A stretch of DNA of 20,472 nucleotides from IMG/VR virus record IMGVR_UViG_3300042275_000805; one strand, written 5' to 3'. The stretch comes from an uncultured virus (IMG/VR IMGVR_UViG_3300042275_000805) (Duplodnaviria > Heunggongvirae > Uroviricota > Caudoviricetes). A model generated the notes under the pieces. That model did not search any database. It was given only the letters and a program-made list of their open reading frames with translations, and was not told where the DNA came from. This document shows, in pieces, positions 3,001 to 19,274 of this stretch; the stretch's first letter is position 1, and the number at the start of each line of letters is the position of its first letter. The position numbers and the translations under genes were made by a program.

Positions 3001-6000
3001 ATCAGGGCATCGCAACCTACACGCCAACTGAGATTGGCTCCTTGCTCATCGAATACTCAGCGACCGATCTTTCCGGCAATACCACCACTGATTCGCTGGA
3101 ACTCTTTGCCTACGATCCGACGGATGTGTCGCGACCTGTGGTAAGCATTGCATCGCCGCTTGATGATGCAACCGTCACCCAGGTGACTGACATTGTTGCC
3201 ACCGTCACCGATGATAATCTCGTCAGCTACACGTTGGCTTATGCTTCTTTGGAGGACATGGTCTTCACCACTATCGCCACCGGTACGGAAAATATCACTG
3301 ATGGCATCCTCGGCCAATTCGATCCGACTATCATTAAGAATGGCACCTATGTCCTGCGTCTGACCGCCGTCGATGCAGGTGGTAACGTGTCAACCGATGA
3401 TGCGTTCCTTGAAGTTGATTCCAATGCCAAGATCGGCAACTTCAGTCTCGGCTTTACCGATCTGTCTACGTCGCTTGGCGGCCTGCCCATCACCATTGGT
3501 CGTACCTATGACACGCTTAATGCGGATGAAGTCGGCGATTTTGGCTATGGCTGGAATCTGGACTTGTTCGAAATGGATATTCGTACCGATGTGGACTTTG
3601 GTGAATCCGAACTTTCGGATATCGGCATTATCCCATCACTTCAACACGGCACACGTCTGCATGTAACATTACCTGACGGCACCAAGCAGAGCTTTACCAT
3701 GCAGGTTGTGCCGATCAACTCAACAGCTGCAGCAGGCTTGTTGGCCTACACATTGAGCATGTATCGTGTTGAATTCGTACCTGATGCGGATAACACTTCC
3801 ACACTCACCACCACCTTGCCTCAACTCCAGGTGTTCATGAATGAATATGGTGAATTGGAAACCGGCGCCGGCATGCCGTTTAACCCTGCTTCACCGTACC
3901 TGGATATCGACTACATCATGACCACGCAGGACGGTACCGAGTTTCTGTTGGATGGCAATACGGGTGAGTTATCCACCATCACGGATCGTCAGGGCAATCG
4001 CCTGGAAGTCTCTGATGACGGTATTCGCACTGTCATGCCTTCCGGTGAAATTGCTGCGGAAATCAGCTTTACCCGTGATCAACTTGGTCGCATCAAACAG
4101 ATCACTGATACTGCCGGTGCAACCATTAATTACACCTATGACACCAAGGGTGATCTCGTCGCGGTCACAGATCGTGTCGGCTCGACCACCACATTCATCT
4201 ACAACCCCGATGAAGCCGCAGGTCGTGAACATTACCTGACGAGTATCGAAGATGCCCGTGGCGTATCCGTCATGAATCTGAACTTCGACGAAACCACCGG
4301 TCGCATCATCAGTCTTGCCGACGCTTCGGGGGCAGCGATTCCGTTTAACTATGATCTGAACCCACCCCAATTACCTGACGGCTACACGCGCGAAACACTC
4401 GCCGATGCCGATGACGTTCCCACCGAAATCATCCGCGACGGCCGTGGCAATACCGTGCGCCAACTCCAACGTCTGTCAGACAACGGCACCGTCAACGACA
4501 CCACCGACGATCTCTGGTCTGTCACCGTCTACGAATACGATGCCAACGACTACCGTACCCGTACCAGTGAAACCTTCCAGGCCACCGGTGATGCTGCCTA
4601 CACTGCATCACCCACCACATGGCTCTCCGAAGCAGATTACGATCCCTTCGGCAACGTGCTTTCCACCACAGATAGTCTGGGCAACACCACCTACTTCACC
4701 TATGACCGCTACGGCAGTCTGCTCACCACTACCGATGCTCAAGGCAACACCACACGCAATACCTACAGCGACACCGGCTTGCTTACGCATACCACAGACG
4801 CCCTGGGCAACGTCACCAGCTATGCCTACGACAGCAACGGCAACATGACTGCTGTCACCGATTCCAATGGCAATGTGGTTTCTACCTTCGTCTATGACAG
4901 TAAAAATCAACTGCTCTCGACGACAGATATCAACGGCAACAGCCGATTCTTCAAGTACGATGACTCTGGCAACCAAACCCATAGTTGGTCATACGAAGAT
5001 GGATACACCACGCTAAGTGTCACTGAGTACGATGCCGCCCAACGTGTCACCGCCAGCTACAGCTACACACTCACCGGCGAATACACCGGCAGCGATAGTG
5101 ACCGCACAGCCATCTTGACCGCCATCCAATCCGCATCACCCACGTCCTACTCATCAAGCACCTACTCCGAAACCGGCCAGGTTCAAACCACCACCGATCT
5201 CTTTGGCAATGTCAGTGAAAGTATGTACGACGTTCGTGGCAATCTCGTCCAATCTCGCTCGCGTGCATACATGGAAAATGGCACGCCCATCTGGTCCGTC
5301 ACCCGCACGTTCTACGATGAAAACGGCCGATCCATCGCTAGTACGTCACCGTTCTTCACCGATGATGCCGGCACATTACTCGCCGATCTCAACGACACCG
5401 ATGAACTCCGCGTCAGCTACAGCATCTACGATGCCCTTGGTCGCGTCATCGAAACGCAATACCTCAAGGGTGTCACCATCGACATCGCGTCCGATGCTGA
5501 GCATGACGGCTTGTATGTCACCAGCTTCACCTATCCCACCACGCCCGACATCCAGACCAGTAGCCAAACCGTCTACGATGCTGCGGGACGAGTCTATCAA
5601 AGTATTTCCAGCACCGGCACGATCACGACGTATGAATACGACACCGCCGGTCGCCAAATCCGTACCACCCTTGATATCGCCCCCGGAAGTGGTGACCCCG
5701 ATGATCAACAAATCACCGAAGTCGAATATGATTCCCTCGGTCGCCAAACCCTCACCCGTGACGCCCTCGGCAACGAAACACGCTACACCTACGACGCACT
5801 GGGTCGCCTTGTTCAAACGACTTATGCTGATGGCACCACCACCAGCACGGAGTATGACAACCTCGGCCGACGTATCAGTGAAACCGACCAACTCGGTCGC
5901 ACCACGCAATACGAATACGACGATGCAGGCCGCACCACTGCGGTGGTGTTGCCCGAAGTCATCGACCCGTTAACCGGTGAATTGACGAATCCGCGTTACG

Positions 6001-8750
6001 AGTACGGCTACGATGATCAAGGTCAGCAGACCAGTATCACCGATCCCAATGGCCACACGACGAACTTCACCTACGATCACCTTGGACGCCAACTCACCCG
6101 CACGTTACCGCTTGGCACACTCACCGGCGTTGAGTCCTCGCACTACGATGACCGCACGTTGGCAGACCTGATCGCTTCGGGAGACGACGTGACCACCTCC
6201 ACCGCTCTGGGCCAAACCGCCTACATGGTCGACTTCGAAGGCAACGTCACCGGCTATCTCTATGACAACTCCGCCCTCGGCTCCGGCCGCACCACACAGG
6301 TCACCTACTATGCCGCCGACGATCTGGCTGCCGCTGGCATCACCATCGCCGTCGGCATGACCCCCGCACAAATCCGTGCAGCTCTCGCCGTCATCACCGC
6401 CGCCCGCACCGTCAGTTACACGTATGACGATGAAGGCCGCATTATCGAAATCAACGACACTGCTCGTGGTTCCGGGGGCGGTATCATCACCAATACCTAC
6501 AACGACGAAGATCAACTCATCCGCATCGCATCACCCGAAGGCATTATCAACTACGCCTACGACGATCTTGGCCAGCTCACTCGCGCATGGACAGGCAATA
6601 CCCCCGGAAGCCATGACGGTGGCACGCCCACCACGGAGACAGTGTATACGTATGATGAACTTGGCCGCATGGCCACGGTGAGAGCAACCTACCGTGCTGG
6701 GATTATCACAACTGAGCCCGCCACCATTTATCACTACGATGCACTTGGCCGCATTGCAGCCATTGAACGTCCCAACAACGTGACAGCTCAGTACCTGTAT
6801 GACAGCATGAGCCATGTGACTGCGGTTTACAATTTTATCGACAGCAATACGAACCAGATGTATGATGCAGGCGGAGGCGATACGCTGGTGAGTGTCTTCG
6901 AATACACCCATGATGCCTATGGTAATCGTTTGGCTGCAACAGAGTCATTCGACACCGACAACGACGGCATGATCGCTGTGGCTCAGGGAGATACGGTGCA
7001 AACCTACACATGGCAATACGACGCATTGAACCGTCTGGTCTCCGAGTCGTTTGATAGTCAACTGGACGACACGCTGGATTACACGGATACCTTTACCTAC
7101 GATCTTGCGAGCAATCGTCAAACACTTGAACATGACGCTGGTAGTGATGGCATGACTTCTGCCGGTGATGAAACCACCAGTTACTTCTATGACGCCAATG
7201 ACCGGTTATTGGCAGAAATCAAAGACAATGCGACTTCCGAGGATGGTGATACCCAAGATACATATACAGAATATACCTACGAGAATACGCTGCAAACAGG
7301 TAAGACGGTTTACGAAGGTACGGACAATAGCGGGAATATTACCAGTAACACGAACTATCTCTATGACGCAACCGGGCGAATGATCGGCGTGGATACTGAT
7401 GGTGATCATATTGCTGATCAAATATATATCTACGACGTTAATGGTGTTCGCGTCAGTCAAACGGATGTCGCCACCGGCAAACATACGATCTATCTGATCG
7501 ATCCACAAAATCCCACTGGCTATGCTAAGCAGATTGAGGAACATATCATCGACGTAGGCGTGGATATGTTATCGCGTTCTTATACGTTGGGCCTGATGAT
7601 CCACGCACAAACGGATCATATCGCAGGTTTGGCAGGCGATGCTGGCACGACACTGTATTTCCTGCAAGACGCTGCCGGCCACACGCGAGCCTTGCTCAAT
7701 GCGATTGGTCAATATGCCCGCACCGCTGACGCAGATCAGGTTGCCCAAATTCTAAGCTACACAGCCTACGGCGACCTGCATAACATCACGCAATCCCAAG
7801 CCCTCACCAGTTGGCAGCGTGCTGACGGTATGTACGACCAGACTACCGGCTTAACCAACCACATCCTGCGATGGCGTGAGGGTGCAAGGTTCCTGTGTCT
7901 GGATTCGTACAGTGGGAATAATCTGTCGCCGCTTAGCCTGCATAAATATATCTATGGCAATGCCAATCCGATTATGGGTGTGGATCCGAGCGGTGAAATG
8001 GCATTTACTATTGGGGCACCTGTTTTGTTTGCGGTTACAGTTGGAATTGCATTGTATATAACTGCTCCTGCGGCTCATGGAATATTTACAGCAAAACCAA
8101 ATGTTGGCCCTAGAACCATTCCGATTGTTATTCATGTCAACACATTTGGCCAACCAAGTAAACGGCCAATGAATCTGTGGAAAATTCAGCAAATGATGAA
8201 AACATCTATTGAGCCATCATTAAATCCAGCTGGTTCTGTTGATAAAATTGCTCTTCAATTAAGAAGAGCATATGCACCACCTGTTACAGGCCTAGGGTGG
8301 ACAAATGTTGGAAACCCGTCACCATGGTGGTATATGATTGCTCCAACCGGATACTTTGGACGAGCTGTTGGTTCAAGATTTTCTTACCTACGTTCTCGGT
8401 GGGATGGTTATATGGAGTTTAACACAAAAGCGAGCGGGATTTTCGCAACAACTCACTCCTCTAGAAGTTGGTACAATCCTAGAGCATATACATCATATGA
8501 CGAAATTACAACTGTTTATGCAAAAACTGTAAGCTCTGCAACGACTTGGCACGGCTGGATGTATCCCAATATGCTTGCACATGAGCAAATTTATCTTGGT
8601 GCTTTTAATGGGACCGACAACAACCCTTTGTACGGATCTGGTTTTTCGTTAAATTCAGGGTCAGGCCTGTCGTATCAACTGAACCCAGTCCCTATACCAA
8701 TTAATGCGGCATGGATCAAACAATTCAGGAGTGATATTGGTGCTAAATAA
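3..8750 (+). CDS. Giant Rhs/YD-repeat polymorphic toxin with N-terminal cadherin-like (putative Ig/He_PIG) repeats; 5'-partial
   Basis: The frame is open from nt 3 (YTTQSFSLPV, matching the end of the internal repeats), so GTG at 30 is not the true start. Ten ~95-aa repeats (NxxPxIxSxP...YxYxxxAxDxDGDxLxY...IDxxTGxLTWTP...QxFxLxV) run to ~2855, then two more Ig-like units. YD repeats (YxYDxxGR) span ~3930-7900, the Rhs terminal motif NPIMGVDPSG ends at 7994, and an AT-richer C-terminal extension follows. Confidence 0.95.
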   Translation, partial: YTTQSFSLPVSEQSIENNTLPVITSDPTGPATVGRQYRYAVVASDANGQTLTYSLANGPEGAVLDPVTGVLTWTPVDHQAGTHSIVIEVSDGIDTVSQSFDLEAVVDSNNSAPDIDSLPTGPAVVGLPWQYAIQSSDIDGDEVTLTLTDAPGGALLDAQTGILSWTPDADGLYSFTVTAADGRGGLVSQSFDLLVNLPENAVNTAPVILTTPAGSAIAGELYTYSFAASDADGDPLTYSLDTTIVGMSIDAQTGVLTWTPDNSLIGTSQSVVIRVDDGRGGILTQSFDLDVVDNVPENNAAPVIMSTPSGSPMVGRLFRYQVTATDANGSTLSYALSDAPQGMQIDATSGLLTWTPSDNQLGEASVVLKVTDGTNTVSQSFTLTVLSDANNNLPTIGSTPYATAAVDRPYQYQVAAADSDGDVLRYGLVDAPTGMQINEATGLLTWTPTSVQEGEHTFAINVYDGRGGVTIQTVSLQVSVPKDNQVPVIDSQPRITTQIDTLYRYDISANDPDASGNEQLIYTLIQAPSGMSVDSSGALTWTPDSSQLGNHDVVLEVTDAQGASQSQSFTLTVTQEATNQPPVITSNPDVAAKVGNTYRYELTASDADHDTVVFLLENAPQGMSITQTVSGHAILTWQPDVDQLGQHSIEITAMDPYGLSTSQTFTLQVYGGNAAPLFSTIANTQAVVGQSYNYTVNAVDPDGDHVTYQLLAGPGNMSIDAESGVINFTPIASQEGTIDNITVAAIDELGAFSKQTFSLVVQAAPPNARPEITSSPTTFAIVGVPYEYQMQATDADDPTGQTLTYSLLSGPADASLDANTGLLTWTPSESTITQFSIAVFDPQGAGSVQNFSIQSRANNAPVINSTPIESVTSGALYRYSILATDPDGDAITVELVDGPAGMTLDQYNRLTWNGSDTAAFEPGTSYTVTVRVTDTFGSQAIQTFDLTVVADNQAPTAYVVPSTQTPALNQPLSIAIVVSDNVGIASRSISVNGTPLAVNDQGIATYTPTEIGSLLIEYSATDLSGNTTTDSLELFAYDPTDVSRPVVSIASPLDDATVTQVTDIVATVTDDNLVSYTLAYASLEDMVFTTIATGTENITDGILGQFDPTIIKNGTYVLRLTAVDAGGNVSTDDAFLEVDSNAKIGNFSLGFTDLSTSLGGLPITIGRTYDTLNADEVGDFGYGWNLDLFEMDIRTDVDFGESELSDIGIIPSLQHGTRLHVTLPDGTKQSFTMQVVPINSTAAAGLLAYTLSMYRVEFVPDADNTSTLTTTLPQLQVFMNEYGELETGAGMPFNPASPYLDIDYIMTTQDGTEFLLDGNTGELSTITDRQGNRLEVSDDGIRTVMPSGEIAAEISFTRDQLGRIKQITDTAGATINYTYDTKGDLVAVTDRVGSTTTFIYNPDEAAGREHYLTSIEDARGVSVMNLNFDETTGRIISLADASGAAIPFNYDLNPPQLPDGYTRETLADADDVPTEIIRDGRGNTVRQLQRLSDNGTVNDTTDDLWSVTVYEYDANDYRTRTSETFQATGDAAYTASPTTWLSEADYDPFGNVLSTTDSLGNTTYFTYDRYGSLLTTTDAQGNTTRNTYSDTGLLTHTTDALGNVTSYAYDSNGNMTAVTDSNGNVVSTFVYDSKNQLLSTTDINGNSRFFKYDDSGNQTHSWSYEDGYTTLSVTEYDAAQRVTASYSYTLTGEYTGSDSDRTAILTAIQSASPTSYSSSTYSETGQVQTTTDLFGNVSESMYDVRGNLVQSRSRAYMENGTPIWSVTRTFYDENGRSIASTSPFFTDDAGTLLADLNDTDELRVSYSIYDALGRVIETQYLKGVTIDIASDAEHDGLYVTSFTYPTTPDIQTSSQTVYDAAGRVYQSISSTGTITTYEYDTAGRQIRTTLDIAPGSGDPDDQQITEVEYDSLGRQTLTRDALGNETRYTYDALGRLVQTTYADGTTTSTEYDNLGRRISETDQLGRTTQYEYDDAGRTTAVVLPEVIDPLTGELTNPRYEYGYDDQGQQTSITDPNGHTTNFTYDHLGRQLTRTLPLGTLTGVESSHYDDRTLADLIASGDDVTTSTALGQTAYMVDFEGNVTGYLYDNSALGSGRTTQVTYYAADDLAAAGITIAVGMTPAQIRAALAVITAARTVSYTYDDEGRIIEINDTARGSGGGIITNTYNDEDQLIRIASPEGIINYAYDDLGQLTRAWTGNTPGSHDGGTPTTETVYTYDELGRMATVRATYRAGIITTEPATIYHYDALGRIAAIERPNNVTAQYLYDSMSHVTAVYNFIDSNTNQMYDAGGGDTLVSVFEYTHDAYGNRLAATESFDTDNDGMIAVAQGDTVQTYTWQYDALNRLVSESFDSQLDDTLDYTDTFTYDLASNRQTLEHDAGSDGMTSAGDETTSYFYDANDRLLAEIKDNATSEDGDTQDTYTEYTYENTLQTGKTVYEGTDNSGNITSNTNYLYDATGRMIGVDTDGDHIADQIYIYDVNGVRVSQTDVATGKHTIYLIDPQNPTGYAKQIEEHIIDVGVDMLSRSYTLGLMIHAQTDHIAGLAGDAGTTLYFLQDAAGHTRALLNAIGQYARTADADQVAQILSYTAYGDLHNITQSQALTSWQRADGMYDQTTGLTNHILRWREGARFLCLDSYSGNNLSPLSLHKYIYGNANPIMGVDPSGEMAFTIGAPVLFAVTVGIALYITAPAAHGIFTAKPNVGPRTIPIVIHVNTFGQPSKRPMNLWKIQQMMKTSIEPSLNPAGSVDKIALQLRRAYAPPVTGLGWTNVGNPSPWWYMIAPTGYFGRAVGSRFSYLRSRWDGYMEFNTKASGIFATTHSSRSWYNPRAYTSYDEITTVYAKTVSSATTWHGWMYPNMLAHEQIYLGAFNGTDNNPLYGSGFSLNSGSGLSYQLNPVPIPINAAWIKQFRSDIGAK
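51..2855 (+). repeat. Tandem array of ten cadherin-like/He_PIG protein repeats (~285 nt unit)
   Basis: Repeat starts NNTLPVI, NNSAPDI, VNTAPVI, NNAAPVI, NNNLPTI, DNQVPVI, TNQPPVI, GNAAPLF, PNARPEI, ANNAPVI; recurrent DxDGD and LTWTP motifs. Confidence 0.85.
7995..8750 (+). other. Variable C-terminal toxin domain of the Rhs protein (~251 aa)
   Basis: Directly follows DPSG; abrupt shift to AT-rich codons; begins with a hydrophobic segment (FTIGAPVLFAVTVGIALYI). Confidence 0.8.
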
Positions 8751-9372
8751 CTTGTTTGCTTTTAAAAAATATTTTTGTGTACCATTATTGTTTTGTGTAT
8801 TTACATTGTTAGTGTTTTTGGCAGTCAAGTGTTTATTTTTTTTAAACAATGACGGCAGCAGTGGCATTGCTAGATATTTAGATGCAGTTCAAAATGATGT
8901 GATATACGACGATAACCATGTGGTCGTTGGAATAAATTTCAATCATTTGGTTTTTTCGGATTTTTTGGTAAATGAGATTGTTCGTGAAAAATCAATACAT
9001 ACTATATATATGTATAAGTGTGTTGTTCGAGAGAAACAGTTTTTGAAACTTATTGGCTCTTTAAAAATACAGTATTTGTCAGTCCCCGGGTGCGCAATAG
9101 ATAATTCGTGCAGAAATCATCTGCTTCTCAGTAAAGATTTGGTTTTATTAAATGTGAGTGAGTCTGGATGTACAGGAGAAGATATTGTTAAGTTGTCGGA
9201 GATAAAAAGCCTAAAGTCGCTAATAGCCAATGGTATTTTAATATCGGATGTAGAACTGAAAACTATAGCTAATAAACGTTCAGATTTAAGCGTTCTTACG
9301 GATATAGGTTGCATTGAAAATGGAGAAATTACACTGTGGAAAGGGGAGGCAGAAAGGGGACATTCTAAATAA
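8740..9372 (+). CDS. Putative cognate immunity protein: N-terminal TM helix plus LRR-like repeats
   Basis: Overlaps the toxin stop. AGGAG at 8727-8731 precedes in-frame TTG 8737 and GTG 8740 (the ORF track start of 8704 is less likely). Very AT-rich. TM segment YFCVPLLFCVFTLLVFLAV; LxxLxLxx-like units (IQYLSVPGCAI, LVLLNVSESGCT, LKSLIANGILI). Confidence 0.7.
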   Translation: MLNNLFAFKKYFCVPLLFCVFTLLVFLAVKCLFFLNNDGSSGIARYLDAVQNDVIYDDNHVVVGINFNHLVFSDFLVNEIVREKSIHTIYMYKCVVREKQFLKLIGSLKIQYLSVPGCAIDNSCRNHLLLSKDLVLLNVSESGCTGEDIVKLSEIKSLKSLIANGILISDVELKTIANKRSDLSVLTDIGCIENGEITLWKGEAERGHSK

Positions 9373-9374
9373 TT

Positions 9375-9515
9375 GACATCGCCGATGAAACGACAAGCTA
9401 CACCTACGACCTCAATGGCAACTTGGACATGCAGGTCACCGAGTGGAACAATGTCGCGTCAGACTACGATTACGACACAATGAATCGCCTGACGCACTTA
9501 ACGCACTTCGTGGAT
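9375..9515 (+). pseudogene. Orphan Rhs/YD-repeat fragment, truncated
   Basis: Translates DIADETTSYTYDLNGNLDMQVTEWNNVASDYDYDTMNRLTHLTHFVD, colinear with EPATIYHYDALGRIAAIERPNNVTAQYLYDSMSHVTAVYNFID (6714-6842). No start codon. Similarity stops at TGTAG (9516). Confidence 0.75.
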
Positions 9516-11007
9516 TGTAGCGGCGCAGAAGATTATCACTCGATAATTGTTCGGATTTTGCCCGCTGACAAAACCTTTGACTCCTGATCATAGCACTGAA
9601 AACAGCAGATGGCGCGTACTGATCGCGCAAAATCGCATCGTTCTTTGGCAAGTGAATATAGGTTGTCATTTTGCATTCAAGCAGCCTGACGTGTCATTGT
9701 GATCTTGATCACCGGTAAATGTGCATCGTCTTTGAATCGGTTGCGTTGAATGCGGATGTGAGGATGGGAAGGCCAATCTGCTGCTCGGATTGGGATCGGC
9801 TCTTCGGGTTCAAAACCGTCCCACGCTTCATCGGGCGTTAAGCCATCAAGGGCATGGTGGTAACGTTTCTGGTTGTACCAAAGTTGGAAGCAATTCAATC
9901 TTATCTGCAAGTTCTGATGATTGGGCAGTAGCAATGTTGCTCGTTGCCAAATTCGTAGTGTTCGAAACAAGCGTTCGATCTTCCCGTTAAAATTTGGCAT
10001 GCGAACGGGGCCTCGAACATGTTTGATGCCCAACTCGTTCAAGCCATCTTTGAACTGCTTTTGAAATTCACCACCATGATCAGTGATCAATTGTCCAGGT
10101 GTTCCATAACGTGTTGCAGCCTTGCGAACCTGTCGAAGCAACTGCTGTGAATTGGGCCTTTTCCTGTAGACACGAAGACACAACAACCGTCGTGTCGCAC
10201 CGTCAAGGATGGCTGCAACGGTGTAGTGGCACCACAATATCTTCAAGCTCATTAAATCCATATGCCAGACATCATTGCGATTGTCGGGTGTCAGTAAGCC
10301 ATGTGGTTCAGCACCAACCGGCTGATTCATCGGCGGCCTACTTTTTCTGGCTTTTTTCGACGTTGGTGGTGGAGTTTCTCGCAGCATGCGTTGCACGGAT
10401 CGCCGACTGATCTGAATGCCAGCACGGATTAATTGCCGCGCGATAGTTCGTGTGCCCATCTCCGGTTCAGGACAAAGTCGCCGCATCTCATGTACTGCCC
10501 ACCGCACCGCATCATCAATCCGATTCCAACGAACCTTGGGAAACAATGCTCCTGACGAACCACCTTTCTCGGCCATTCGAATCCAATTGCGCACTGATTG
10601 CGGATGAAGCACAAATCGCTTGCAAACGATGGCAATACTCCAACCCCGCTGCCGCATCAATTGCACGATGGCCATGCGTTGCTCGGCTGAGTATTCAGGG
10701 CGTTTTCTGGAAATCAAGTTGGCTCGTTGCCCACGCAGGATTTCAAGCTCGCGTTTGAGCCACTCAACTTCGGTCAGTAACGCATCGCGTTCCACGATCA
10801 GATTCAGTGTCGAAGAGGCATTGTTTGCCAATCGACATCGTGCAAGCTGATAAGCCTGAGCAATGACGATGGTCACGGAATCTATGATTTTCAAGGTCGA
10901 CGCACAGGTGAACCAATGCATGGCAAACTTCCCTCCGGAATGTACCATGAATTGTATCGAATGGATGAGAGATTCTTAGTAGGCAGTGCGAAATTCACGG
11001 CCAAACA
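9516..11007 (-). mobile_element. IS-like element carrying an rve/DDE transposase; left end fairly clear, right end uncertain
   Basis: TGT terminus (TGTAGCGGCGCAGAA) at 9516, exactly where Rhs similarity ends. Only a weak partner end (TTCACGGCCAAACA, to 11007). No target duplication seen. Confidence 0.5.
9677..10921 (-). CDS. DDE-type integrase/transposase (rve integrase core, IS481/IS3-like) with N-terminal coiled coil and HTH
   Basis: Catalytic triad in WHMDLM, LITDHGGEF and NGKIERLFRT; WYNQKRYHHALDGLTPDE tail; HTH WSIAIVCKRFVLHPQSVRNWI. GGAGGG lies 9 nt before ATG 10921 (the track starts at 10948). Confidence 0.9.
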   Translation of the reverse strand: MHWFTCASTLKIIDSVTIVIAQAYQLARCRLANNASSTLNLIVERDALLTEVEWLKRELEILRGQRANLISRKRPEYSAEQRMAIVQLMRQRGWSIAIVCKRFVLHPQSVRNWIRMAEKGGSSGALFPKVRWNRIDDAVRWAVHEMRRLCPEPEMGTRTIARQLIRAGIQISRRSVQRMLRETPPPTSKKARKSRPPMNQPVGAEPHGLLTPDNRNDVWHMDLMSLKILWCHYTVAAILDGATRRLLCLRVYRKRPNSQQLLRQVRKAATRYGTPGQLITDHGGEFQKQFKDGLNELGIKHVRGPVRMPNFNGKIERLFRTLRIWQRATLLLPNHQNLQIRLNCFQLWYNQKRYHHALDGLTPDEAWDGFEPEEPIPIRAADWPSHPHIRIQRNRFKDDAHLPVIKITMTRQAA

Positions 11008-11084
11008 ATCGCTCCGGTTTTGACGTGATTGGGTTTTTATAAGTAAATCAATTTTTAATGAGTGTCTTCCGATTTTGCGCTTTA

Positions 11085-11090
11085 TATAAT
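11085..11090 (+). promoter_or_regulatory. Possible sigma70 -10 box for the 11113 gene
   Basis: Perfect TATAAT 22 nt upstream of the ATG in an AT-rich intergenic region; no good -35 box. Confidence 0.3.
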
Positions 11091-11112
11091 AGATGGTGAA
11101 ATCAGGTGACTC

Positions 11113-11457
11113 ATGAAAAAATCTAACAGAATCCCCAAGGATGATCAGTTCTCTGAGGGCGACATACGCCGCGCATTAACCAATATCTTTCATGTTTCAT
11201 GTGGGACGATTCCTCCGTTCCTGTGGGTTGGGGCAATTGAAAGGTTCATTGACGAGGAGGGGATTGAAATAACTGTACGAGAGGCAGTGCGTTCATTTAA
11301 TGAGGGAATGGAATCAATCGGGCAGTTTGACGAAGCGTTAGATGAAGATGCATATGCACAACGATTTATGGCCCAATCCTCAAACTCATCTGGCGAATTA
11401 GCTGAAGCACTTTTGAATGATCTATTGCCGCGTGCCAAGAAATGGTCCGGCACTTAA
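11113..11457 (+). CDS. Hypothetical protein (114 aa, acidic)
   Basis: ATG preceded by AGGTGA; AT-rich upstream region with TATAAT at 11085-11090. Confidence 0.65.
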   Translation: MKKSNRIPKDDQFSEGDIRRALTNIFHVSCGTIPPFLWVGAIERFIDEEGIEITVREAVRSFNEGMESIGQFDEALDEDAYAQRFMAQSSNSSGELAEALLNDLLPRAKKWSGT

Positions 11458-11555
11458 TCCAAGGCGAGTGCAACATGATCGCTTGCCATGGTTCAGCACG
11501 ATCTGGTTATAAGCGGTAAAATGGCACTTTCAATCGATGCCCATGGATCGTGCTC

Positions 11556-11783
11556 ATGCCCAAACCTAAGCGTAAACTCACAAAAGCCGAGAAAGCCCGA
11601 CGTAAAAAACGTCGTGAAGAGACCATGATCATCTTCGTCAACGGCAAGCAGAAACGCATCAAACGACCGCCAATCATCGATGGCATGGATGCCGACGAAT
11701 TTATCCGTCGCAATGCTGATCCGCTGTGGTATCACCAAAATGAGATGTGGGAATGCATCGATAAGGATAACGACGGGCTGTGA
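11556..11783 (+). CDS. Small conserved hypothetical protein (basic N-terminus, NGKQ...IDGMDxDEFIRRNADPxWxHQNEMWE)
   Basis: Resembles, from memory, a widespread ~70-aa uncharacterised family found in mobile contexts. ATG at 11556 (the track uses GTG 11550). Confidence 0.7.
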   Translation: MPKPKRKLTKAEKARRKKRREETMIIFVNGKQKRIKRPPIIDGMDADEFIRRNADPLWYHQNEMWECIDKDNDGL

Positions 11784-11882
11784 TTAACCACTGTATGATT
11801 TCATAAAAAGCTAGGGTTGTATGTGCACTTATCAATTGACAGTGGAGTGACTCGAGTAAAACATTGTAGTCAGACCATGGCA

Positions 11883-12551
11883 TCAATTCCATAAGGGATC
11901 AGGCAATCGATCTTCGGGGAAAGAATACCAAATGTGCCACTTGCTATCGGGAATCGGTAGAAAACCGACTTGCTTCCAGTGTTTGGCCAGTTTGGCATGA
12001 GCCTGTTCATATGAACATTGGAACTGATCATACTGCATCTTCTGGCTCCAATCGTCCTCCCATTCTCTGACTTGCGGATTCATCGGCGCTGGACAAGTAA
12101 CCGTCAAGCCATCGGCAATATGATGGGCCTTTAGGAATTTACGCATGGCTTGAAGACCAATGCCCTTGCCACGAAACTCCGGCAGGATTTCGACCGAGTG
12201 AATGTACAGCATATTCCGCATCAAGAAAGTATCTTTGACCCGTTCAGAAACCTTCAATTTAAATTCGTCCAGTTCGGGATCAAAGACCTCTTCATAAATC
12301 TCACATGCCTCTTGTGAATCGGCATCCAGCAAATCCCAAACTGATGTGCGGCCAGTGATGACGCTTTCCAACCAATACTGGATGGCTTTTATGCGTCCCA
12401 CCTGAATACGCTCCACAACCTCACCTGAGTCATCATATTGGACACGTTCAAGACTGCCTTCAATTTTGATGCGGTAGTCCAGCTCATCCGAGAACGATTG
12501 GACAGTCCGTGTGATCATTTCGTAATCGTAGTCATCATCTTGATTGTACAT
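11883..12551 (-). CDS. GNAT-fold (acetyltransferase-like) hypothetical protein
   Basis: Motif A-like LYIHSVEILPEFRGKGIG and a C-terminal HWKQVGF (YxxxGF-like); RBS AAGGGGG upstream. Confidence 0.7.
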   Translation of the reverse strand: MYNQDDDYDYEMITRTVQSFSDELDYRIKIEGSLERVQYDDSGEVVERIQVGRIKAIQYWLESVITGRTSVWDLLDADSQEACEIYEEVFDPELDEFKLKVSERVKDTFLMRNMLYIHSVEILPEFRGKGIGLQAMRKFLKAHHIADGLTVTCPAPMNPQVREWEDDWSQKMQYDQFQCSYEQAHAKLAKHWKQVGFLPIPDSKWHIWYSFPEDRLPDPLWN

Positions 12552-12595
12552 CAGTGAATTCCCCCTTGATTAATAGAACATGTAACTCAGGATTG

Positions 12596-12955
12596 TCATG
12601 ATACCTTCTTGACCAACCATCGCCACCAGACACGTGGCAGTCCTGCCCAACCGGCGCGGTTCATGGTGGCCATGCGGGATTTGCAACTGGTGCATGGACG
12701 CACCAAGCCGAAGGTGGTGACCTGAATGAACATGGAAAGCCATGTGCCGGGCGGCAGAATGCGACTGGACTTTGGTATTGGTAAGTCAGTCCACTTGCCC
12801 AATGGACACTTGGATGAAGGCAACTGAGTACGGGATTTCAGATCGACACCGTCAATGGCACAATTGCATTTGCGATCCGGATGGGACAGGCAGCTAACTG
12901 CGTGTTCGCATTGACGGCAGATGGATCGGCGCTTGTTGATGAAGTCGGTGGGCAT
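12596..12955 (-). CDS. Cys-rich phage protein (CxxC...CxC...CPLGKW plus PCxxC domain)
   Basis: RRSICRQCEH...KCNC...KCPLGKW and VRPCTSCKSRMATMN; RBS AAGGA upstream. Confidence 0.75.
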   Translation of the reverse strand: MPTDFINKRRSICRQCEHAVSCLSHPDRKCNCAIDGVDLKSRTQLPSSKCPLGKWTDLPIPKSSRILPPGTWLSMFIQVTTFGLVRPCTSCKSRMATMNRAGWAGLPRVWWRWLVKKVS

Positions 12956-12988
12956 GGTAATTCCTTGAATGATGAGTGAACGTGAGGC

Positions 12989-13756
12989 TTAAATTCCGGG
13001 GCTTCCGGGGGTGCAACTGCCATCACCGTTGGAATCGCCGACGAAGCAATTGCCTTGTTCGTCCATACAACTCGTTTCATCGAGAACTTCGATTTGCAGT
13101 TGGACGCGAGCGGGGTTGTCGTAAATATTCCAGATGTTGGTGCAGATGCTGTGATTGTGCAGTTCGTCACTGAGGATCGATGCGCTGCGGCAACTTCCGG
13201 GGGCTGACGGGATGCAGGCGGCGAAGATGCGGCCGCAGGTGTCATCTGAATCTTCGTTGGCATAACCGTCGACTGTGACGTACCAACGCGTGGTGCCATC
13301 GCCATCGCAACCTGCGAGCACCATGGCGTTGACATAACTGCTACAAGTCGCCCCCGGAAGTTCGATGCCGTATCCCTGCCAGCGCGGGCCGGTGATGGTG
13401 TCGCTTTCGCAGTTGGGTTGAGGGTGACCACCGATCATGCCGGAGTGACCGCAGCCCGGACAGTATGGTGGATTCCATGCACCGCAACTAAATGGAATCT
13501 CAATGGTGTTACCCATGAAGGCAGGATCGGTGCAGCAGCAACGTTCGTGGGTATTGCCATAATCAATCAATTGCCATGTGATTCGGATGCGTGATTGATT
13601 GGTGAAGCAGCACGGGCCACAGGCACACGCGTTGGCCAACACGGGTTCCTGGCCGCAGCATTTGCCGCAGATCATAAAGAGCCCATCTTCCGTTAAACCC
13701 AATTCGCCTGAGCCAGATTTGAGCGGGTCGAGATCAAATTCGCCATCACTCCCCAT
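12989..13756 (-). CDS. Cys-rich putative tail-tip/receptor-binding protein (255 aa, ~23 Cys)
   Basis: ATG 13756 has GGAGG 9 nt upstream and overlaps the previous stop (the track start of 13885 is too long). CC and CCC clusters. Occupies the distal position of the tail operon. Confidence 0.7.
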   Translation of the reverse strand: MGSDGEFDLDPLKSGSGELGLTEDGLFMICGKCCGQEPVLANACACGPCCFTNQSRIRITWQLIDYGNTHERCCCTDPAFMGNTIEIPFSCGAWNPPYCPGCGHSGMIGGHPQPNCESDTITGPRWQGYGIELPGATCSSYVNAMVLAGCDGDGTTRWYVTVDGYANEDSDDTCGRIFAACIPSAPGSCRSASILSDELHNHSICTNIWNIYDNPARVQLQIEVLDETSCMDEQGNCFVGDSNGDGSCTPGSPGI

Positions 13757-14654
13757 CGTCACATACCTCCACAGCCAAAGTCTCATTGGCGTCATACAGA
13801 ATGAATTCACGTGACCCGTCATAGGGATTGGTGACGTAATAACCGGTGCCGATGATGCCATCGCCGGTTGCTGGCGCAGTAACAAGTTTGCCTGCTGCGG
13901 GCCGTTGCTTGAGGGGCGTCATTTCTTCACCGAGAATCGTGCCATCTTCTTCTTCGTCGTAGGCATCGATGGTTTTGACAAAGTAGGTGCGATCACATTG
14001 CGTGGTGGCATCGCCATCGGTGATGCCACCATCCTGCCAGACTTTGCAGGGAATGAGTGTCGTGGTATCCACCAGGCTGGGGACACCGAGTTTGACGATA
14101 GCCCAACACGGTTCACCGATGGAAACTTCGGGTTGACTCCAGAGAATCTGTGTACTGCCGGTGGCTGACGATGTCATGATCGCCGGGAAGCCCACGGGCG
14201 CTTTGGCAAATTGATGAGTTTCATCGGTGATGATGATGCGAACCTGACACACACCTTGGATCATCGCCCGACCAACCTGACCGGCACGGATCGGTTCAAG
14301 CAGAATGGCATGTTTGTCCATGGCCACATGTGTATCAAGCTCGGGGAACACACCGCTGAAGACGATCTGATCGACAAAGCTTCCTTCCAGATCCATGATC
14401 GTCTGCGGCTCGTGAACCGAGTCCTCGATGCCGAGGATGAAGTAACGCCAACAATCCATCGGCGAATCATTCTTCACCCAAATGACACCACCTTGCCCCC
14501 GGCCCCCGGACGCGTTTGCCGACTGCATGGATTGCTCAAGTTTCTGGCGCGGTTTGATGCGTTGCTGAAAATCCGTCGCCGCATCGATGAACGCGTTGTA
14601 TGTGTTGGCCGGGATCACCAGAGGATCGCCGGTACTGACTTTTTTCAATGTCAT
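13746..14654 (-). CDS. Phage minor tail/tail-tip protein (302 aa)
   Basis: GGAGG RBS; second gene after the tape measure; N-terminus KKVxxGDPLxIPAxTYNAFIDAA resembles planctomycete prophage tail proteins (recall, not searched). Confidence 0.7.
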   Translation of the reverse strand: MTLKKVSTGDPLVIPANTYNAFIDAATDFQQRIKPRQKLEQSMQSANASGGRGQGGVIWVKNDSPMDCWRYFILGIEDSVHEPQTIMDLEGSFVDQIVFSGVFPELDTHVAMDKHAILLEPIRAGQVGRAMIQGVCQVRIIITDETHQFAKAPVGFPAIMTSSATGSTQILWSQPEVSIGEPCWAIVKLGVPSLVDTTTLIPCKVWQDGGITDGDATTQCDRTYFVKTIDAYDEEEDGTILGEEMTPLKQRPAAGKLVTAPATGDGIIGTGYYVTNPYDGSREFILYDANETLAVEVCDDGE

Positions 14655-14666
14655 GCTAAACCTCCA

Positions 14667-15533
14667 TCAAGAACCAATGTCCAGCAAACCAAAGTCGGCA
14701 TCTTCATAGACTTGTTCGACGTAGGCTGCGACCGGGCGTTTGACCATGGCCATCGCATCCATGTCCTCGACGTCGGCGTAACGTACCCAGAGGTACTCCC
14801 AACCCTTCTTGGCAATGCCACTGATGCTGCCGATGGTGATGCCGGTTTTGTTGGGCGATGCGGCGAACCTGAAAGTGATCTCCCAATCACCTGTCGTCTC
14901 TGTGTCAGTCTCAGTACCGTGCAATGTGCCGGATGCACCAAGGAACAAACACTCACCCGCAGCCAACCCACGGAACCCCCCGGAATTGACCTTGCCAGTG
15001 AGTTGGAACAGCGTGCCCTTGTATTCCGGCGTGACTTGTTCAACCGTCAGGTAATGGGTTTCGCTGAAGTTGTAGATGGGAACCGTGATGTCCACGCCCT
15101 GGACTTCGGCATTGCCATTGGTGTTGGACACGCCGATCGCACCATGGAAGTCAGGCGCAGATGGAATCGATGAATCGGCATACGAACCCACGGTGTTCAA
15201 CGACTGGGTGATATGCTGTGTGCCACCCATGGTGTCAAAGCTGTACGTATACTCGCCACTACCAGGCTCAGGCCCCCCGCCCCCGGAAGTTGAAGACGAT
15301 GAAGAAGCTTCGGCGTAACGCACGGATGCATCCCAATACTCTTCGCTGATCGGCTCGATCTGTACGGATTGCATAGGCAGACCGTCGTAGGTTTCAGGTG
15401 CAAAACTCTCGACAGCAGACTTGATCGCAAGATCGTCATCGCTGCCACTGGCAATGTAAGTCAGCGTCACCTGGGCATTGCTACCCGTGGTGCTTTGCCG
15501 ACTGTCATATTTTTCTGCAACGGTGATGGGCAT
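14667..15533 (-). CDS. Phage tail protein immediately after the tape measure (distal tail/hub-like, 288 aa)
   Basis: Synteny; beta-rich, acidic composition; KKGWEYLWVRY motif. Confidence 0.75.
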   Translation of the reverse strand: MPITVAEKYDSRQSTTGSNAQVTLTYIASGSDDDLAIKSAVESFAPETYDGLPMQSVQIEPISEEYWDASVRYAEASSSSSTSGGGGPEPGSGEYTYSFDTMGGTQHITQSLNTVGSYADSSIPSAPDFHGAIGVSNTNGNAEVQGVDITVPIYNFSETHYLTVEQVTPEYKGTLFQLTGKVNSGGFRGLAAGECLFLGASGTLHGTETDTETTGDWEITFRFAASPNKTGITIGSISGIAKKGWEYLWVRYADVEDMDAMAMVKRPVAAYVEQVYEDADFGLLDIGS

Positions 15534-15556
15534 AAGGTTTTCAACTTCCGGGGGGA

Positions 15557-17926
15557 TTAAGCAAATGAGAGCGACGATGATCCACCGCCACCGTTCTGCA
15601 CTTCGTTGTAGAGTTTCTTGACGTAACGCGCGGTGTCTTCACTGGCAGCAGCAGTACGTTGAGCAATCGACTGATTCGTCATGAGTCCCTGTAAGGCTGC
15701 GGAATTGAACGTGCCGCGTGATTGCTGATTGGGACTCAGCGAACCGATCTGCCCACCGAGTTCGGCGAGTTTCTTCTTGAGGGTGTCGATCAAGTTGTCA
15801 GGTGTCGAAGGTGAATCACCAGATTGATTTGCTTCCGGGGGTTTGTTCTTGGCAGCCTGCTGTAATAAATGTTGGTATTCAGCACGGGTCTTTTCCAGAT
15901 CGTTCAACGCAGTGGCCATCTGTTTTTCGTACTGGGTTTGACGACTCTTGTTACCTGCTTTCTGTTCTTGATCGATGAGATTCTGTTGGGTTTGGCGTTC
16001 GTGGTCGATGCGTGCCAGGTCTGAATCGTATTGTTGTTTGTTTTCAGCCAACGCCGCATCACGTTGCCTGGTGATATTGGCTTTATCAGCGTTGGCATTG
16101 GTGCGGGCAATGTTGATCGCCATGTCGACGTTGTAGTCTTTGTCGAACAGGCCGATCAGATGATGCATCCCTTCCTCGACCTTGAGTTGGGCAGATCGGA
16201 ACGTGGACTGCAAACCCGCTGTCATCGTTGTCCAGGCGTCGGAGAGGAATGTTGTGGTTTGAACCCACAGGATGCGCAGGCCGTGCCAGGCATCGACGAG
16301 CACCTTGGTCACCTTATAGAAGGTTTGGCTGGCCACATTGACGATGGTGTACTTGAAGCTGTACCACAGGGATTCAACTTGATAGATGCCGCGTTGCCAT
16401 TCGACTTTGAGTGCCTGCCAGAGAACCTTGGCAGCAAGACTCAGATCACCAGAAGCCAACGCATCGCGGATGCCATGCCAGGCCACCAACGCACGATCCT
16501 TCAGATCATTGAATCGATCACTGAGCCAGTTGAGTGTCTTGGATGCAATATCCGTCATGCTCAATATGGCAATGCCAATGCCTGCCGCAGCGACGATCAC
16601 CAAGCCCATGGGTGAGAGCAATGCACCCAGTACCGTGAGTAGCGTGCCAATCACACCCACGCTGCCGGTGATAATGCCCGACAAGCCACCGAAGATAAAC
16701 GCCACCGCCTGAGCCGCGACGCCGGTGGTCATCAGGATCACACCCACGGCAGAGATTCCGGCAATCACCAACGCAGCGGAGCGCACCAGAGACTGGTTCT
16801 TGCTGAGCAGATCAATCACCACGCCTGCATATCTGGACACAATGGCTGCTGCTTTTGCCACGGGTTCACTCAGAGCTTCGCCCATGATGCCCAGTACAAT
16901 GATGCCTGCTTGCTTGATACGGTTAAAGGCGTGCGTCAAGGTTTTGCTGAGTTTGGCATAGGCTTTGTCAGCCAAGCCCGCGCGACTTTGCATCGCATCC
17001 AGGTCAGACTCAAAACCCTTGAGGTTGTTCAGAGCCGGGACGATACCACGCAGGGCAGCCGAGTCGGGGAACAACTTAGCCAACACATCGGGCGGTAGTT
17101 TGGCGAGTTTTTCCATGACGCCATGCAAGCCCTCGGTCTTGAGCGTCGTGGTATTCATCTCAAAGCCAAGTTGTTTGGCCAGGGCTGTGGCCTCGCTACT
17201 TGGCTTGAGAAAGCTGCGCAGAATACCATTGACCGAATCGATGGCCGTGGTGGTGCGCAGGCCATTGCGTGTGAGTGTGGCGATCATCGCGCCCAGTTCA
17301 TCCAGTGGTAATCCCGCGCTGGCAGCCGTCGAAGCCACCATGCCGATCTGGGGTGCCAGTTCAGCAAACGTCGTTTTGCCACGTTGCACAATACCGAACA
17401 ACCAGTCTGAGACATCACCAGCTTGTTCAGCAGCCAGGCCATAACTGTTCAGCACCGTGGTAATGGCGTCGGCTGCGGTGCGTGTATCCGTCAAACCCGC
17501 CTTGGCAGACTTGGCGGCAACACCCAACACATCCAGCGCTTTAGCTGGAGCAATCGAAGCTGACAGGATGTCATACAAACCACCGGACAAGGCTTCGGTG
17601 GATTCGCCAAATCTCACCGCCATTTTGCGGATGCCCTTGGTGAAGCTGTCCATATACTTCTCGGCATCAGAGTCTGAGAGCATGGTGGCGACGGTGGCCA
17701 TCTGCTGCTGAAAATCCGCATAGATTTTCAGGCCCGAAAGCAGAGGCACCGCCGCCACCGCCGACACGGCAGTCAGTCGCTTACCGATCTCGCCCACAGA
17801 TTTACCGAAGGCTTTAACGCGCTTCTGGGCCTTGTCGAGTCCACGCACCAGCTTGCTGTCCTGTGTGGTCAGTTCAATGTACGCAGCCCCGGCACGAATG
17901 TTCCGACTGTTGGCGATACCAGCCAT
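15557..17926 (-). CDS. Phage tail tape measure protein (TP901-like core)
   Basis: 789 aa, Ala/Leu-rich helical. N-terminal AGAAYIEL; TMP core (GLYDILSA, GKTTFAELA); central hydrophobic Gly-rich segment; periodic Trp residues; GGGAG RBS. Confidence 0.93.
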   Translation of the reverse strand: MAGIANSRNIRAGAAYIELTTQDSKLVRGLDKAQKRVKAFGKSVGEIGKRLTAVSAVAAVPLLSGLKIYADFQQQMATVATMLSDSDAEKYMDSFTKGIRKMAVRFGESTEALSGGLYDILSASIAPAKALDVLGVAAKSAKAGLTDTRTAADAITTVLNSYGLAAEQAGDVSDWLFGIVQRGKTTFAELAPQIGMVASTAASAGLPLDELGAMIATLTRNGLRTTTAIDSVNGILRSFLKPSSEATALAKQLGFEMNTTTLKTEGLHGVMEKLAKLPPDVLAKLFPDSAALRGIVPALNNLKGFESDLDAMQSRAGLADKAYAKLSKTLTHAFNRIKQAGIIVLGIMGEALSEPVAKAAAIVSRYAGVVIDLLSKNQSLVRSAALVIAGISAVGVILMTTGVAAQAVAFIFGGLSGIITGSVGVIGTLLTVLGALLSPMGLVIVAAAGIGIAILSMTDIASKTLNWLSDRFNDLKDRALVAWHGIRDALASGDLSLAAKVLWQALKVEWQRGIYQVESLWYSFKYTIVNVASQTFYKVTKVLVDAWHGLRILWVQTTTFLSDAWTTMTAGLQSTFRSAQLKVEEGMHHLIGLFDKDYNVDMAINIARTNANADKANITRQRDAALAENKQQYDSDLARIDHERQTQQNLIDQEQKAGNKSRQTQYEKQMATALNDLEKTRAEYQHLLQQAAKNKPPEANQSGDSPSTPDNLIDTLKKKLAELGGQIGSLSPNQQSRGTFNSAALQGLMTNQSIAQRTAAASEDTARYVKKLYNEVQNGGGGSSSLSFA

Positions 17927-17950
17927 TGCGACTCCCGTTTACAAGGCAAT

Positions 17951-18056
17951 TAACCACAGATAAACACAGATGAACACAGATAAGAATTAAGCCACGAATC
18001 ACAGCAACACATCAAAAAAACATCTGCGTTTATCTGTGTGATTTCCGGGGGTGTGG
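17951..18056. repeat. Intergenic palindromic decamer repeat element (REP-like)
   Basis: Left arm TAACCACAGA-TAAACACAGA-TGAACACAGA-T (17951-17981); inverted arm ATCTGCGTTT-ATCTGTGTG (18022-18040), then AT...TGTGG. Confidence 0.8.
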
Positions 18057-18067
18057 CAAAAATGTCT

Positions 18068-18541
18068 TTATACGGTGGCTACCGTCGCCCCGGAAGACGT
18101 ACTCGTGGTCTTGCGGCCTTCGTCCAGGCCCTTGTTGAAGGAGGCTTCCTTTTCTTTGCGGAGTTTACCCGAGCCAAGGAATAAACCGAGTAGTCCGGAT
18201 GCAGCAGGCAGCATGGGGCCAAGGACGGGAACGCCTGCAACGGTGGGACCGATTTCATCGAGAGCCGACAGCGACAACTGGTTGACCATGTTGCGGATTT
18301 CATTGGCATGTTCGATGTTGGATTTCCACTGGCTGCCAGCGGTTTGCATGTGCTGATACCAGAGTTGGTATTCGCTCTCGGCTTCGTTGAGGGAGATGGT
18401 GCTGGCTAATCCGGTTTGCTGCTGGATCGTGTTGGGCGTTTTGACGTGGATCATGTCGCCCATGTCGCAGCCCGCAAAACTCAGCAGGCCCAGGACGAGG
18501 AAGACGATGACGAACAGGAAGATCAAGTGGTTGGTTTTCAT
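18068..18541 (-). CDS. Prophage lipoprotein with a C-terminal hydrophobic segment (157 aa)
   Basis: Signal peptide plus lipobox SFAG-C; hydrophobic VAGVPVLGPMLPAASGLLGLFLG followed by a basic tail; ATGA overlap with the upstream gene. Confidence 0.8.
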   Translation of the reverse strand: MKTNHLIFLFVIVFLVLGLLSFAGCDMGDMIHVKTPNTIQQQTGLASTISLNEAESEYQLWYQHMQTAGSQWKSNIEHANEIRNMVNQLSLSALDEIGPTVAGVPVLGPMLPAASGLLGLFLGSGKLRKEKEASFNKGLDEGRKTTSTSSGATVATV

Positions 18542-18825
18542 TGTGGGTTTTTCCTTGAGGGGATGAATGTTTTCTTGAGCAAGGCCATGGCATCGTCGGT
18601 GTCCAAGGGGATCACCTGTGATGTCTGGCTTTGGGCAAACGGATCAAAGTCCGAAGCTTTGAACGTGTGGGAACGATTGAAGGTCAGCAGGTTGGCAAGC
18701 AAGGCCATCAAGTTGGATGTATGCTGCCAATCCTGTTTCTGGCGGGACTGGGCCATCTCGTACAACTCCCGTAAGGTAAAACTTCCGGGGTGGACGCCGA
18801 GGACACCTGCCAGTTGCCAGATCAT
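18538..18825 (-). CDS. Tail assembly chaperone, T part (gpT-like; probably also expressed as a GT fusion)
   Basis: LGVHPGSFTLRELYEM motif typical of T segments; lies in the -1 frame relative to the upstream G gene; ATGA overlap. Confidence 0.75.
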   Translation of the reverse strand: MIWQLAGVLGVHPGSFTLRELYEMAQSRQKQDWQHTSNLMALLANLLTFNRSHTFKASDFDPFAQSQTSQVIPLDTDDAMALLKKTFIPSRKNPQ

Positions 18826-19274
18826 GTCTTGGCAGGTTGCAGCAGGTGTTCGAGTTGCTGCTGCAACTCCGGGCTGTCCAGTTGCTGGCTGGCGATTTCC
18901 AGGGCTTTTTCCTCGACCTGGCGAAGCTTTGCCAGTGCCTTCTTGAGCACTTGCCGCTTCGCTGCGGGGAAAAAATCCGCCAACTCCTGAAGCAATGCTG
19001 TGGTGGCATGATCGATCACGTCACCTGCCAATGCTTGGCCGAACTGTTCATCGGTGATGTTGGCGCTCTCGGCTTGCTGCTGGCAAATGGCAAAGAGCAC
19101 ATCACAGAGCAGGATCGGATCGGTGGAGAGTTTTTCCAGCAGATGGGATTTACTGTCCAACACATCCAGTAGATTGACATTGCATAATGCCTGAACACGC
19201 TTGATGGTGGCGACCGTGATCTGCACAGTCCAGACATTGTTGCCGTTACTTCCGGGGGCAGTGAAGGTATGCAT
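18822..19274 (-). CDS. Tail assembly chaperone, G part (gpG-like, 150 aa)
   Basis: Follows the major tail gene with a TAATG overlap; helical; contains ELADFFP with a slippery heptamer. Confidence 0.8.
   Translation of the reverse strand: MHTFTAPGSNGNNVWTVQITVATIKRVQALCNVNLLDVLDSKSHLLEKLSTDPILLCDVLFAICQQQAESANITDEQFGQALAGDVIDHATTALLQELADFFPAAKRQVLKKALAKLRQVEEKALEIASQQLDSPELQQQLEHLLQPAKT
18969..18975 (-). promoter_or_regulatory. Candidate -1 programmed ribosomal frameshift site T-TTT-TTC
   Basis: X-XXY-YYZ heptamer in the correct phase (GAT TTT TTC); the -1 frame is open for 48 codons into the T ORF. Confidence 0.65.

Follow-up and report, generated by a model that had tools for sequence, protein, structure and literature searches.

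A strict octamer of Phycisphaeraceae enriched in prophages and other mobile DNA: anatomy, distribution and candidate readers

The word and its setting in the window

The window analyzed here is a stretch of 20,472 nucleotides from an uncultured virus (IMG/VR IMGVR_UViG_3300042275_000805). It is a Phycisphaeraceae prophage that forms the end of the 82-kb virus record G000, and the element under study is a non-palindromic octamer, TTCCGGGG (the word), which recurs in it on either strand. Record G000 contains a prophage, 13 kb of cargo, a 9153-amino-acid (aa) Ig/Rhs open reading frame (ORF) and a second tail module, which shares 86% identity with the first. Pieces of the stretch are matched with 0 differences by public contigs from four runs, so the word is not an assembly artefact.

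A first-pass annotation, made from the letters of the window alone, had listed 15 copies of the word. All 15 were exact at the positions given (Table 1), with 9 on the plus and 6 on the minus strand, and its estimate of fewer than one copy expected per 20 kb agreed with dinucleotide shuffles of the window (mean 0.53, maximum 3 in 100 shuffles). The reported crowding of twelve copies into the tail genes was also borne out (12994-19257), the other three belonging to the Rhs portion of the giant ORF. Thirteen copies are coding and two intergenic (15546 and 18043), and none of the 15 falls in the transposase, the intron, the toxin tip, the immunity gene or the window's Ig stalk. The full ten-mer CTTCCGGGGG accounts for nine of the 15, and every copy except that at 12994 lies within one mismatch of it.

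Across record G000 the word is the top 8-mer, with 29 copies compared to 1.8, 2.4 and 8.3 expected from Markov models of order 3, 4 and 5, respectively. For the ten-mer, 15 copies compare to 0.79 at order 5, so the ratios are not near 1 under the background that the annotation had proposed as a check. Eleven of the 13 coding copies share a single offset, reading as xSG in the sense and xPG in the antisense direction, which weakens the earlier remark that several reading frames are used. This preference for xSG and xPG, together with the retention of an NSGGF peptide in motif-free orthologues, would be expected if the word were only a side effect of codon bias or of loops rich in Gly, Ser and Pro. 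Nevertheless, codon-preserving shuffles of nine window genes gave a mean of 0.54 and a maximum of 4 in 500 shuffles against the 13 observed, 57 of the 148 copies in another viral record (G290, below) are intergenic, and phage loci from outside the family use the word at only 5 of 786 sites that could encode it. The probability of such a by-product is thus close to nil, in agreement with the annotation's exclusion of codon bias.

Table 1. Copies of TTCCGGGG in the window and the larger features that hold them
Feature	Position	Strand
Copy in Rhs core of giant Ig/Rhs ORF (APGS)	5681..5688	-
Copy in Rhs core (GSGG)	6470..6477	+
Copy in Rhs core (TPGS)	6602..6609	-
Two direct tandem copies, 9 bases apart, C-terminus of 263-aa tail-region gene (TPGSPGI*)	12994..13010	+
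Copy in 263-aa gene (APGS; non-carriers APGT)	13195..13202	+
Copy in 263-aa gene (ELPGA; non-carriers VPEGA, a block change)	13352..13359	-
Copy in 288-aa tail gene (NSGGF)	14978..14985	-
Copy in 288-aa tail gene, Ser/Gly loop longer than in out-family orthologues	15281..15288	-
Intergenic copy, gap between tape-measure gene and 288-aa gene	15546..15553	+
Copy in tape-measure protein, C-terminal linker (KPPE)	15833..15840	+
Intergenic copy, upstream of tape-measure gene	18043..18050	+
Copy at C-terminus of 157-aa gene (SSGA)	18088..18095	-
Copy in 95-aa gene (HPGSF; non-carriers HPDPF; out-family DPGPL or DPAPL)	18783..18790	+
Copy in inserted N-terminal APGS, 150-aa gene	19250..19257	+
Prophage tail module, second copy in the contig; includes tape-measure protein (15557-17926)	12596..19498	-
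3' part of 9153-aa Ig-repeat/Rhs ORF; 8 word copies in whole ORF, 3 in window	30..8750	+

Anatomy of the word and gain of copies

The sequence profile around the copies reads R-C-TTCCGGGG-G-Y, with no signal further out, and the weak R-C and G-Y flanks are identical in hosts and in G290. The exact word occurs 5-36 times more often than expected and 8-mers one mismatch away only 1.0-1.4 times. In 1.28 Mb of word-rich DNA, 367 exact ten-mers compare to between 1 and 20 of each core variant. The 8-base core is strict and behaves in an all-or-none manner. A G-tailing process was considered and rejected, as about two thirds of the copies have a run of 5 G and the length of this run is not variable.

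Among ten YY-CCGG-RR words compared, only TTCCGGGG was strongly enriched. A quasi-palindrome (RCYYCCGGRRGY) was rejected because no palindromic variant is enriched, and this also speaks against the annotation's likening of the word to the highly iterated palindrome HIP1. Both are octamers iterated in coding and non-coding DNA of one lineage (HIP1 in cyanobacteria; PMC5861425), but the present word is non-palindromic and no linked 5-methylcytosine (m5C) methyltransferase was found. The suggestion of a CCGG methylation signal was likewise not supported: no orthologous m5C methyltransferase is shared by the enriched genomes G001, G107, G088 and G173, whose enzymes have 25-35% identity (57% in one pair), and one-mismatch variants in the 1.28 Mb of rich DNA show no C-to-T excess, hence no trace of deamination.

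Strand bias by replichore, a check that had been proposed earlier, was absent in three near-complete genomes. With dnaA taken as the origin, the splits were 44/88 in G001, 51/100 in G107 and 31/80 in G088 (p 0.06), and the best free splits (0.61-0.66) were not significant either. For G001 and G107 the counts were made with longer sub-patterns, which made the list of places complete or nearly so. KOPS (FtsK-orienting polar sequences) are G-rich asymmetric octamers that belong to the polarized motifs of chromosome architecture; TTCCGGGG differs from them in having no polarity toward the terminus in these three genomes.

Copies tend to stand in direct repeat. Within 60 bases of each other, 84 pairs were direct and 18 inverted (among 563 copies, redundant prophage copies included), and few of the inverted pairs form long hairpins. 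Word-rich hosts carry it in linkers, termini and gaps, often as arrays with a period of 9, 12 or 13 bases, and the genes for DnaK, DnaE, RecA and triose-phosphate isomerase were without it in the rich-host regions examined. Separately, a REP-like (repetitive extragenic palindromic) element with inverted GCACAC/GTGTGC arms and the word at its center was observed in G161 (L116:5101, L118:2134).

An alignment of 13 prophage copies held 146 copies of the word in 30 site clusters, none of them fixed, and opposite orientations were seen at one site in different prophage copies. At 9 of 16 gap-free sites the non-carrier is one mismatch away, whereas at four coding sites non-carriers average 3.7-5.7 of 8 bases from the word and 0.6-2.3 from one another. 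Three sites are polarized as gains by out-family orthologues, namely the APGS insertion and the HPGSF and KPPE replacements. APGS is inserted in the 150-aa gene where out-family proteins read xTFT-DN without an insert, sister copies have up to three inserts, and public contigs show further tandem expansion at 19257. At 12994..13010 the majority of sister copies finish in xxPTPGI, without the word. Tolerant sites thus acquire the word through substitutions, block changes and tandem insertions. The outcome that the annotation had named as refuting, conservation of the same residues in orthologues from motif-free genomes, was not obtained, with one partial exception: NSGGF at 14978 also occurs in motif-free out-family orthologues (exactly in 4 of 39).

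Such a pattern of gain is compatible with biased repair or conversion that brings no benefit, in which heteroduplexes and slippage loops are resolved toward the strand of the word and the word spreads where divergent copies recombine. All 30 clusters being polymorphic, the opposite orientations at one site and the arrays of 9, 12 and 13-base period, which extend even into the AddB protein of G062, would all be in keeping with this. The flanks of carriers also lie slightly nearer to other copies than those of non-carriers do (mean 0.17 vs 0.19). Against it, the four enriched complete genomes share no common m5C methyltransferase, the C-to-T excess is missing and no enzyme can be put forward as a candidate; we regard this explanation as rather improbable. 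As a separate observation, G001 (CP087563.1) carries about 12 related serine-recombinase prophages at 1.06, 2.67-3.70 and 5.70-5.78 Mb, with 10-18% DNA divergence and mosaic throughout.

A host-lineage word enriched in mobile DNA

The closest relatives of the 288-aa tail gene are found in Phycisphaeraceae, including the related prophages of the complete genome G001, where CTTCCGGGGG occurs 425 times compared to 5 for the reversed control. Among 144 Phycisphaeraceae genomes the ten-mer exceeded its own control in 134 and was enriched in 99 (p < 0.001 and at least threefold over the reversed control), with a density ranging from 0.5 to 328 per Mb and a median of 16. The same test was passed by 20 of about 143 genomes of the order outside the family list, by a hand tally; G062 has 1445 copies, and the unpublished order genome G108 is at background, with no claim resting on it. 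More than 50 copies at five times the control were found only in G001 and G016 among 251 genomes of the phylum. TTCCGGGG is therefore a trait of the Phycisphaeraceae host lineage and stands at background in nearly all other Planctomycetota. A triple-tandem scan of 3 of the 64 parts of the genome collection, which gave 50 loci picked by title, included 11 non-planctomycete matches that were checked, and all were at control level.

The possibility of dialects was also explored. A search through 20-40 kb of each of 12 motif-poor family genomes yielded no clear substitute for the word; TTCGGGGA in G084 was rejected since it consists largely of xPEP codons, and GGCGGGGG was met in G285 during the same search. 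Over-represented G-rich words in motif-free genomes, namely GTGGCGGGG in tandem (L364, G285) and GTGGGGGT (L021, L028), may be dialects. Among the literature matches listed, which left most subscription journals uncovered, no paper dealt with TTCCGGGG or with Phycisphaerae uptake sequences or Chi sites, and as an iterated word it is apparently undescribed. The core of the annotation, that of a real, unpolarized, undescribed host-lineage signal placed in loops and gaps, was thus upheld.

Within this lineage the pressure for the word is stronger in mobile DNA than in the chromosome. In G001, 26 eight-mers were counted in 400 kb of background (65 per Mb; regions read, not a formal core genome), compared to 145 in 230 kb of prophage tail loci (about 630 per Mb). 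Twenty prophage regions of 17 motif-poor hosts, taken from the 33 carriers of the tail gene and chosen at 2.5 to 22 ten-mers per Mb, held 46 ten-mers where the host means predicted 3.6. Prophages being far richer than their own host chromosomes, the annotation's idea of passive accumulation in a long-resident prophage does not fit. The excess is not explained by tolerance either, since peptide sites able to encode the word are put to unequal use: 53 of 197 (27%) in the G001 prophage loci compared to 12 of 382 (3%) in the G001 background, and 53 of 415 (13%) in prophage regions of poor hosts compared to 5 of 498 (1%) in their background. The out-family phage loci use 0.6% of theirs, yet have more encodable sites per kb. 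For these counts ORFs were called mechanically, and the poor-host background came partly from other genomes.

Other mobile elements are similarly loaded: 8 copies lie within 2.2 kb of IS21 in G001 and 13 within 7 kb of a recombinase-terminase island in G088, and a Mu-like region in G143 is also dense in the word. A scan of viral contigs for tandem patterns turned up 68 stretches. The 194-kb viral record G290, 97% complete, has 148 copies compared to 5, on both strands, and is as word-rich as the richest hosts. Its genes include those for terminase, portal, head and fibre proteins, DNA polymerase, RecA, RecET and ParA; a tyrosine or serine integrase was looked for and not found. To assign a host to G290 by the word would be circular. 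On its own account, G290 (L596-L605) is a phage or phage-plasmid with a split DNA polymerase III alpha and a sugar-modification cluster.

A packaging or binding site of this one prophage family, which the annotation had offered as an alternative, could account for the very dense tail module (12 copies in 6.7 kb). However, the tail gene is present in 33 of the 144 family genomes, whose median density is 19 per Mb compared to 16 for the family, and was not found in nine of the most motif-rich (G143, G161, G110, G206, G209, G210, G026, G240 and G080). Relatives of the same phage outside the family were without the word, and unrelated phages and IS21 carry it. This alternative is accordingly given very little weight.

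Candidate readers of the word

Known iterated words are either biased toward the core genome, as are DNA uptake sequences (DUS) and Chi, or palindromic, as is HIP1, and TTCCGGGG is unusual in being biased toward phages. A word under stronger selection in phages than in the chromosome of their host points to a step in the host that foreign DNA must pass, and a likely interpretation of TTCCGGGG(G) is that a protein of the host reads it within the cell as a 'self' tag. It is not filed under Chi, DUS or HIP1 here, because each of these has a defining feature that was tested and that the word lacks.

By analogy, the reading we favor is that the word would act as a Chi-like signal to the AddAB helicase-nuclease of the host and that phages would be selected to carry it. 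AddAB meeting the word on linear DNA would stop degrading and begin recombination, and selection would act on the DNA molecule that bears it. Since linear phage DNA can be entered from either end, phages attacked in this way would gain from both orientations and from direct repeats, and host chromosomes would fill to different levels as tagged alleles win recombination. The word resembles the Chi sites of RecBCD and AddAB (E. coli GCTGGTGG) in being an asymmetric octamer with a G-rich 3' end and a strict core, and its hosts encode AddAB. In AddB it is the inactive helicase domain that reads Chi (PMC3321194). Phages without RecBCD inhibitors over-represent Chi at least to the level of the host core, T5-like and P1-like phages the most (Bobay et al., PMC3784561), and a strong excess in phages was found for the present word. 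The annotation had dismissed Chi for lack of polarity; polarity is indeed absent, but unpolarized candidate Chi sites have been published for Vibrio (PMC8022716, whose octamer tables cover Proteobacteria and Terrabacteria), and Chi remains a candidate.

AddB was detected in 135 of the 144 family genomes, with AddA adjoining and an AddB-AddA pair in G001, and a profile of the protein had Bacillus AddB as its sole credible PDB match. Its absence from the rich family genomes G271, G272, G273, G217 and G080 was due to contig breaks. Three family genomes with RecC had no AddB match and were not enriched (Fisher p 0.03, kinship ignored), and none of the 10 RecC genomes of the order sample had more than 31 copies. 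No AddAB/RecBCD inhibitor was found among 114 G290 proteins scanned. Two AddB features were tried as discriminators and rejected: a loop-cap Asp separated rich from poor genomes in a kinship-blind shuffle and failed in G062, G110 and G227, and an Arg in the N-terminal region is family-specific, as are many other columns. Besides these, the family member G061 (L382) was seen to have RecBCD in place of AddAB, and the AddB of G062 (L627) has a 27-residue loop insertion holding the word.

Several observations weigh against AddAB as the reader. The word differs from E. coli Chi in being unpolarized in the three near-complete genomes, not enriched in the core, very uneven among host species and over-represented 15-36 fold rather than 2.3 fold (PMC3784561). 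Most of the 45 non-enriched family genomes likewise have AddB, as do 161 of 201 order genomes, and density is scattered over the AddB tree while the word is unchanged, which suggests an old reader and a labile strength of accumulation. In the enriched out-family metagenome-assembled genomes (MAGs) G053 (145 vs 13) and G174 (109 vs 0), similarity to AddB/AddA is confined to nuclease and helicase motifs, and no good AddB match was found in the enriched G267 and G537. Seven of the 20 prophage regions of poor hosts have no ten-mer at all, and the 17 kb from portal to integrase in the contig's first prophage hold no copy, which does not suit uniform protection; the corresponding parts of G001 prophages have 4 to 11 copies per 20 kb. 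A one-sided recombination signature around the word was not seen in 22 prophage copies, which are saturated mosaics. Finally, an attempt to place the host of G290 through its terminase found no relatives. The missing polarity and core excess, the presence of AddAB in motif-poor genomes and the four enriched MAGs without it are the reasons why we set the probability of this reading at only about 0.38.

The enriched genomes without this AddAB are compatible with another family-specific host protein that binds the word, either of a nucleoid or condensin type or a defence sensor that spares tagged DNA, with phages selected for many sites. Such a binder would cover the excess in mobile DNA over the core, the use of both strands, the direct arrays and the strict core, all without polarity, and the same weak R-C and G-Y flanks in hosts and G290 would follow from it. 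No candidate protein emerged, and a host density of 0.5 to 328 per Mb is hard to reconcile with an architectural role; we consider it possible, if doubtful. Similar reserve applies to the more specific proposal that the tag is read by a novel factor of Phycisphaeraceae, distinct from AddAB and from any uptake receptor, and that phages, prophages and insertion sequences mimic the tag so strongly that their own proteins are rewritten. Equally tentative is the suggestion that this mimicry would constitute a new kind of positive, sequence-coded discrimination between self and non-self.

A DNA uptake sequence, the parallel that the annotation had drawn, would spread because transformation favors word-bearing fragments, by a molecular drive that is fastest in multi-copy recombining elements. 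The statistics fit: like the DUS of Neisseriaceae and the uptake signal sequences (USS) of Pasteurellaceae, the word is lineage-specific, asymmetric, unpolarized on both strands and, where it is most abundant, present at hundreds per Mb, and it occupies permissive positions where new copies are often many mismatches away from the homologous allele, as with DUS (Treangen et al., PMC2397512). ComEC is intact in 126 and DprA present in 131 of the 144 genomes. The division between core and mobile DNA does not fit, for DUS are core-rich and rare in accessory DNA (PMC2397512) and here the reverse holds, with G290, in which no integrase was found, rivaling the densest hosts. Direct arrays outnumber inverted pairs of the terminator type, AT-rich flanks are absent, and one-mismatch variants are barely enriched, whereas those of uptake sequences are (PMC2817400). 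Additionally, ComEC and DprA are found whether a genome is rich or poor in the word and do not follow its density, and the 4.1-Mb contig of G088 has no ComEC match, yet keeps the word in mobile islands. Overall, we consider an uptake sequence unlikely.

If AddAB does read the word, this would be the first Chi candidate in Planctomycetota, none having been found in the literature, and Chi could then be unpolarized and shaped mainly by conflict with phages. If it does not, the word would mark an unknown self-recognition system. In either case, its presence in viruses and plasmids from metagenomes may help to mark Phycisphaeraceae as their hosts.

The window also holds features apart from the word. 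The 9153-aa ORF and a likely immunity gene (window 30-9372; G000:43289-71372) lie between the two tandem prophage tail modules, and the tail end of the module has an rve-type transposase and a GNAT-like orphan gene (window 9677-10948 and 11883-12551). A tail gene is split by a group II intron at 19499-20472, with an Rfam RF00029 match at 19499-19573 and a maturase/HNH ORF at 19590-20414, and a group II intron occupies the same place in the first tail module of the contig.

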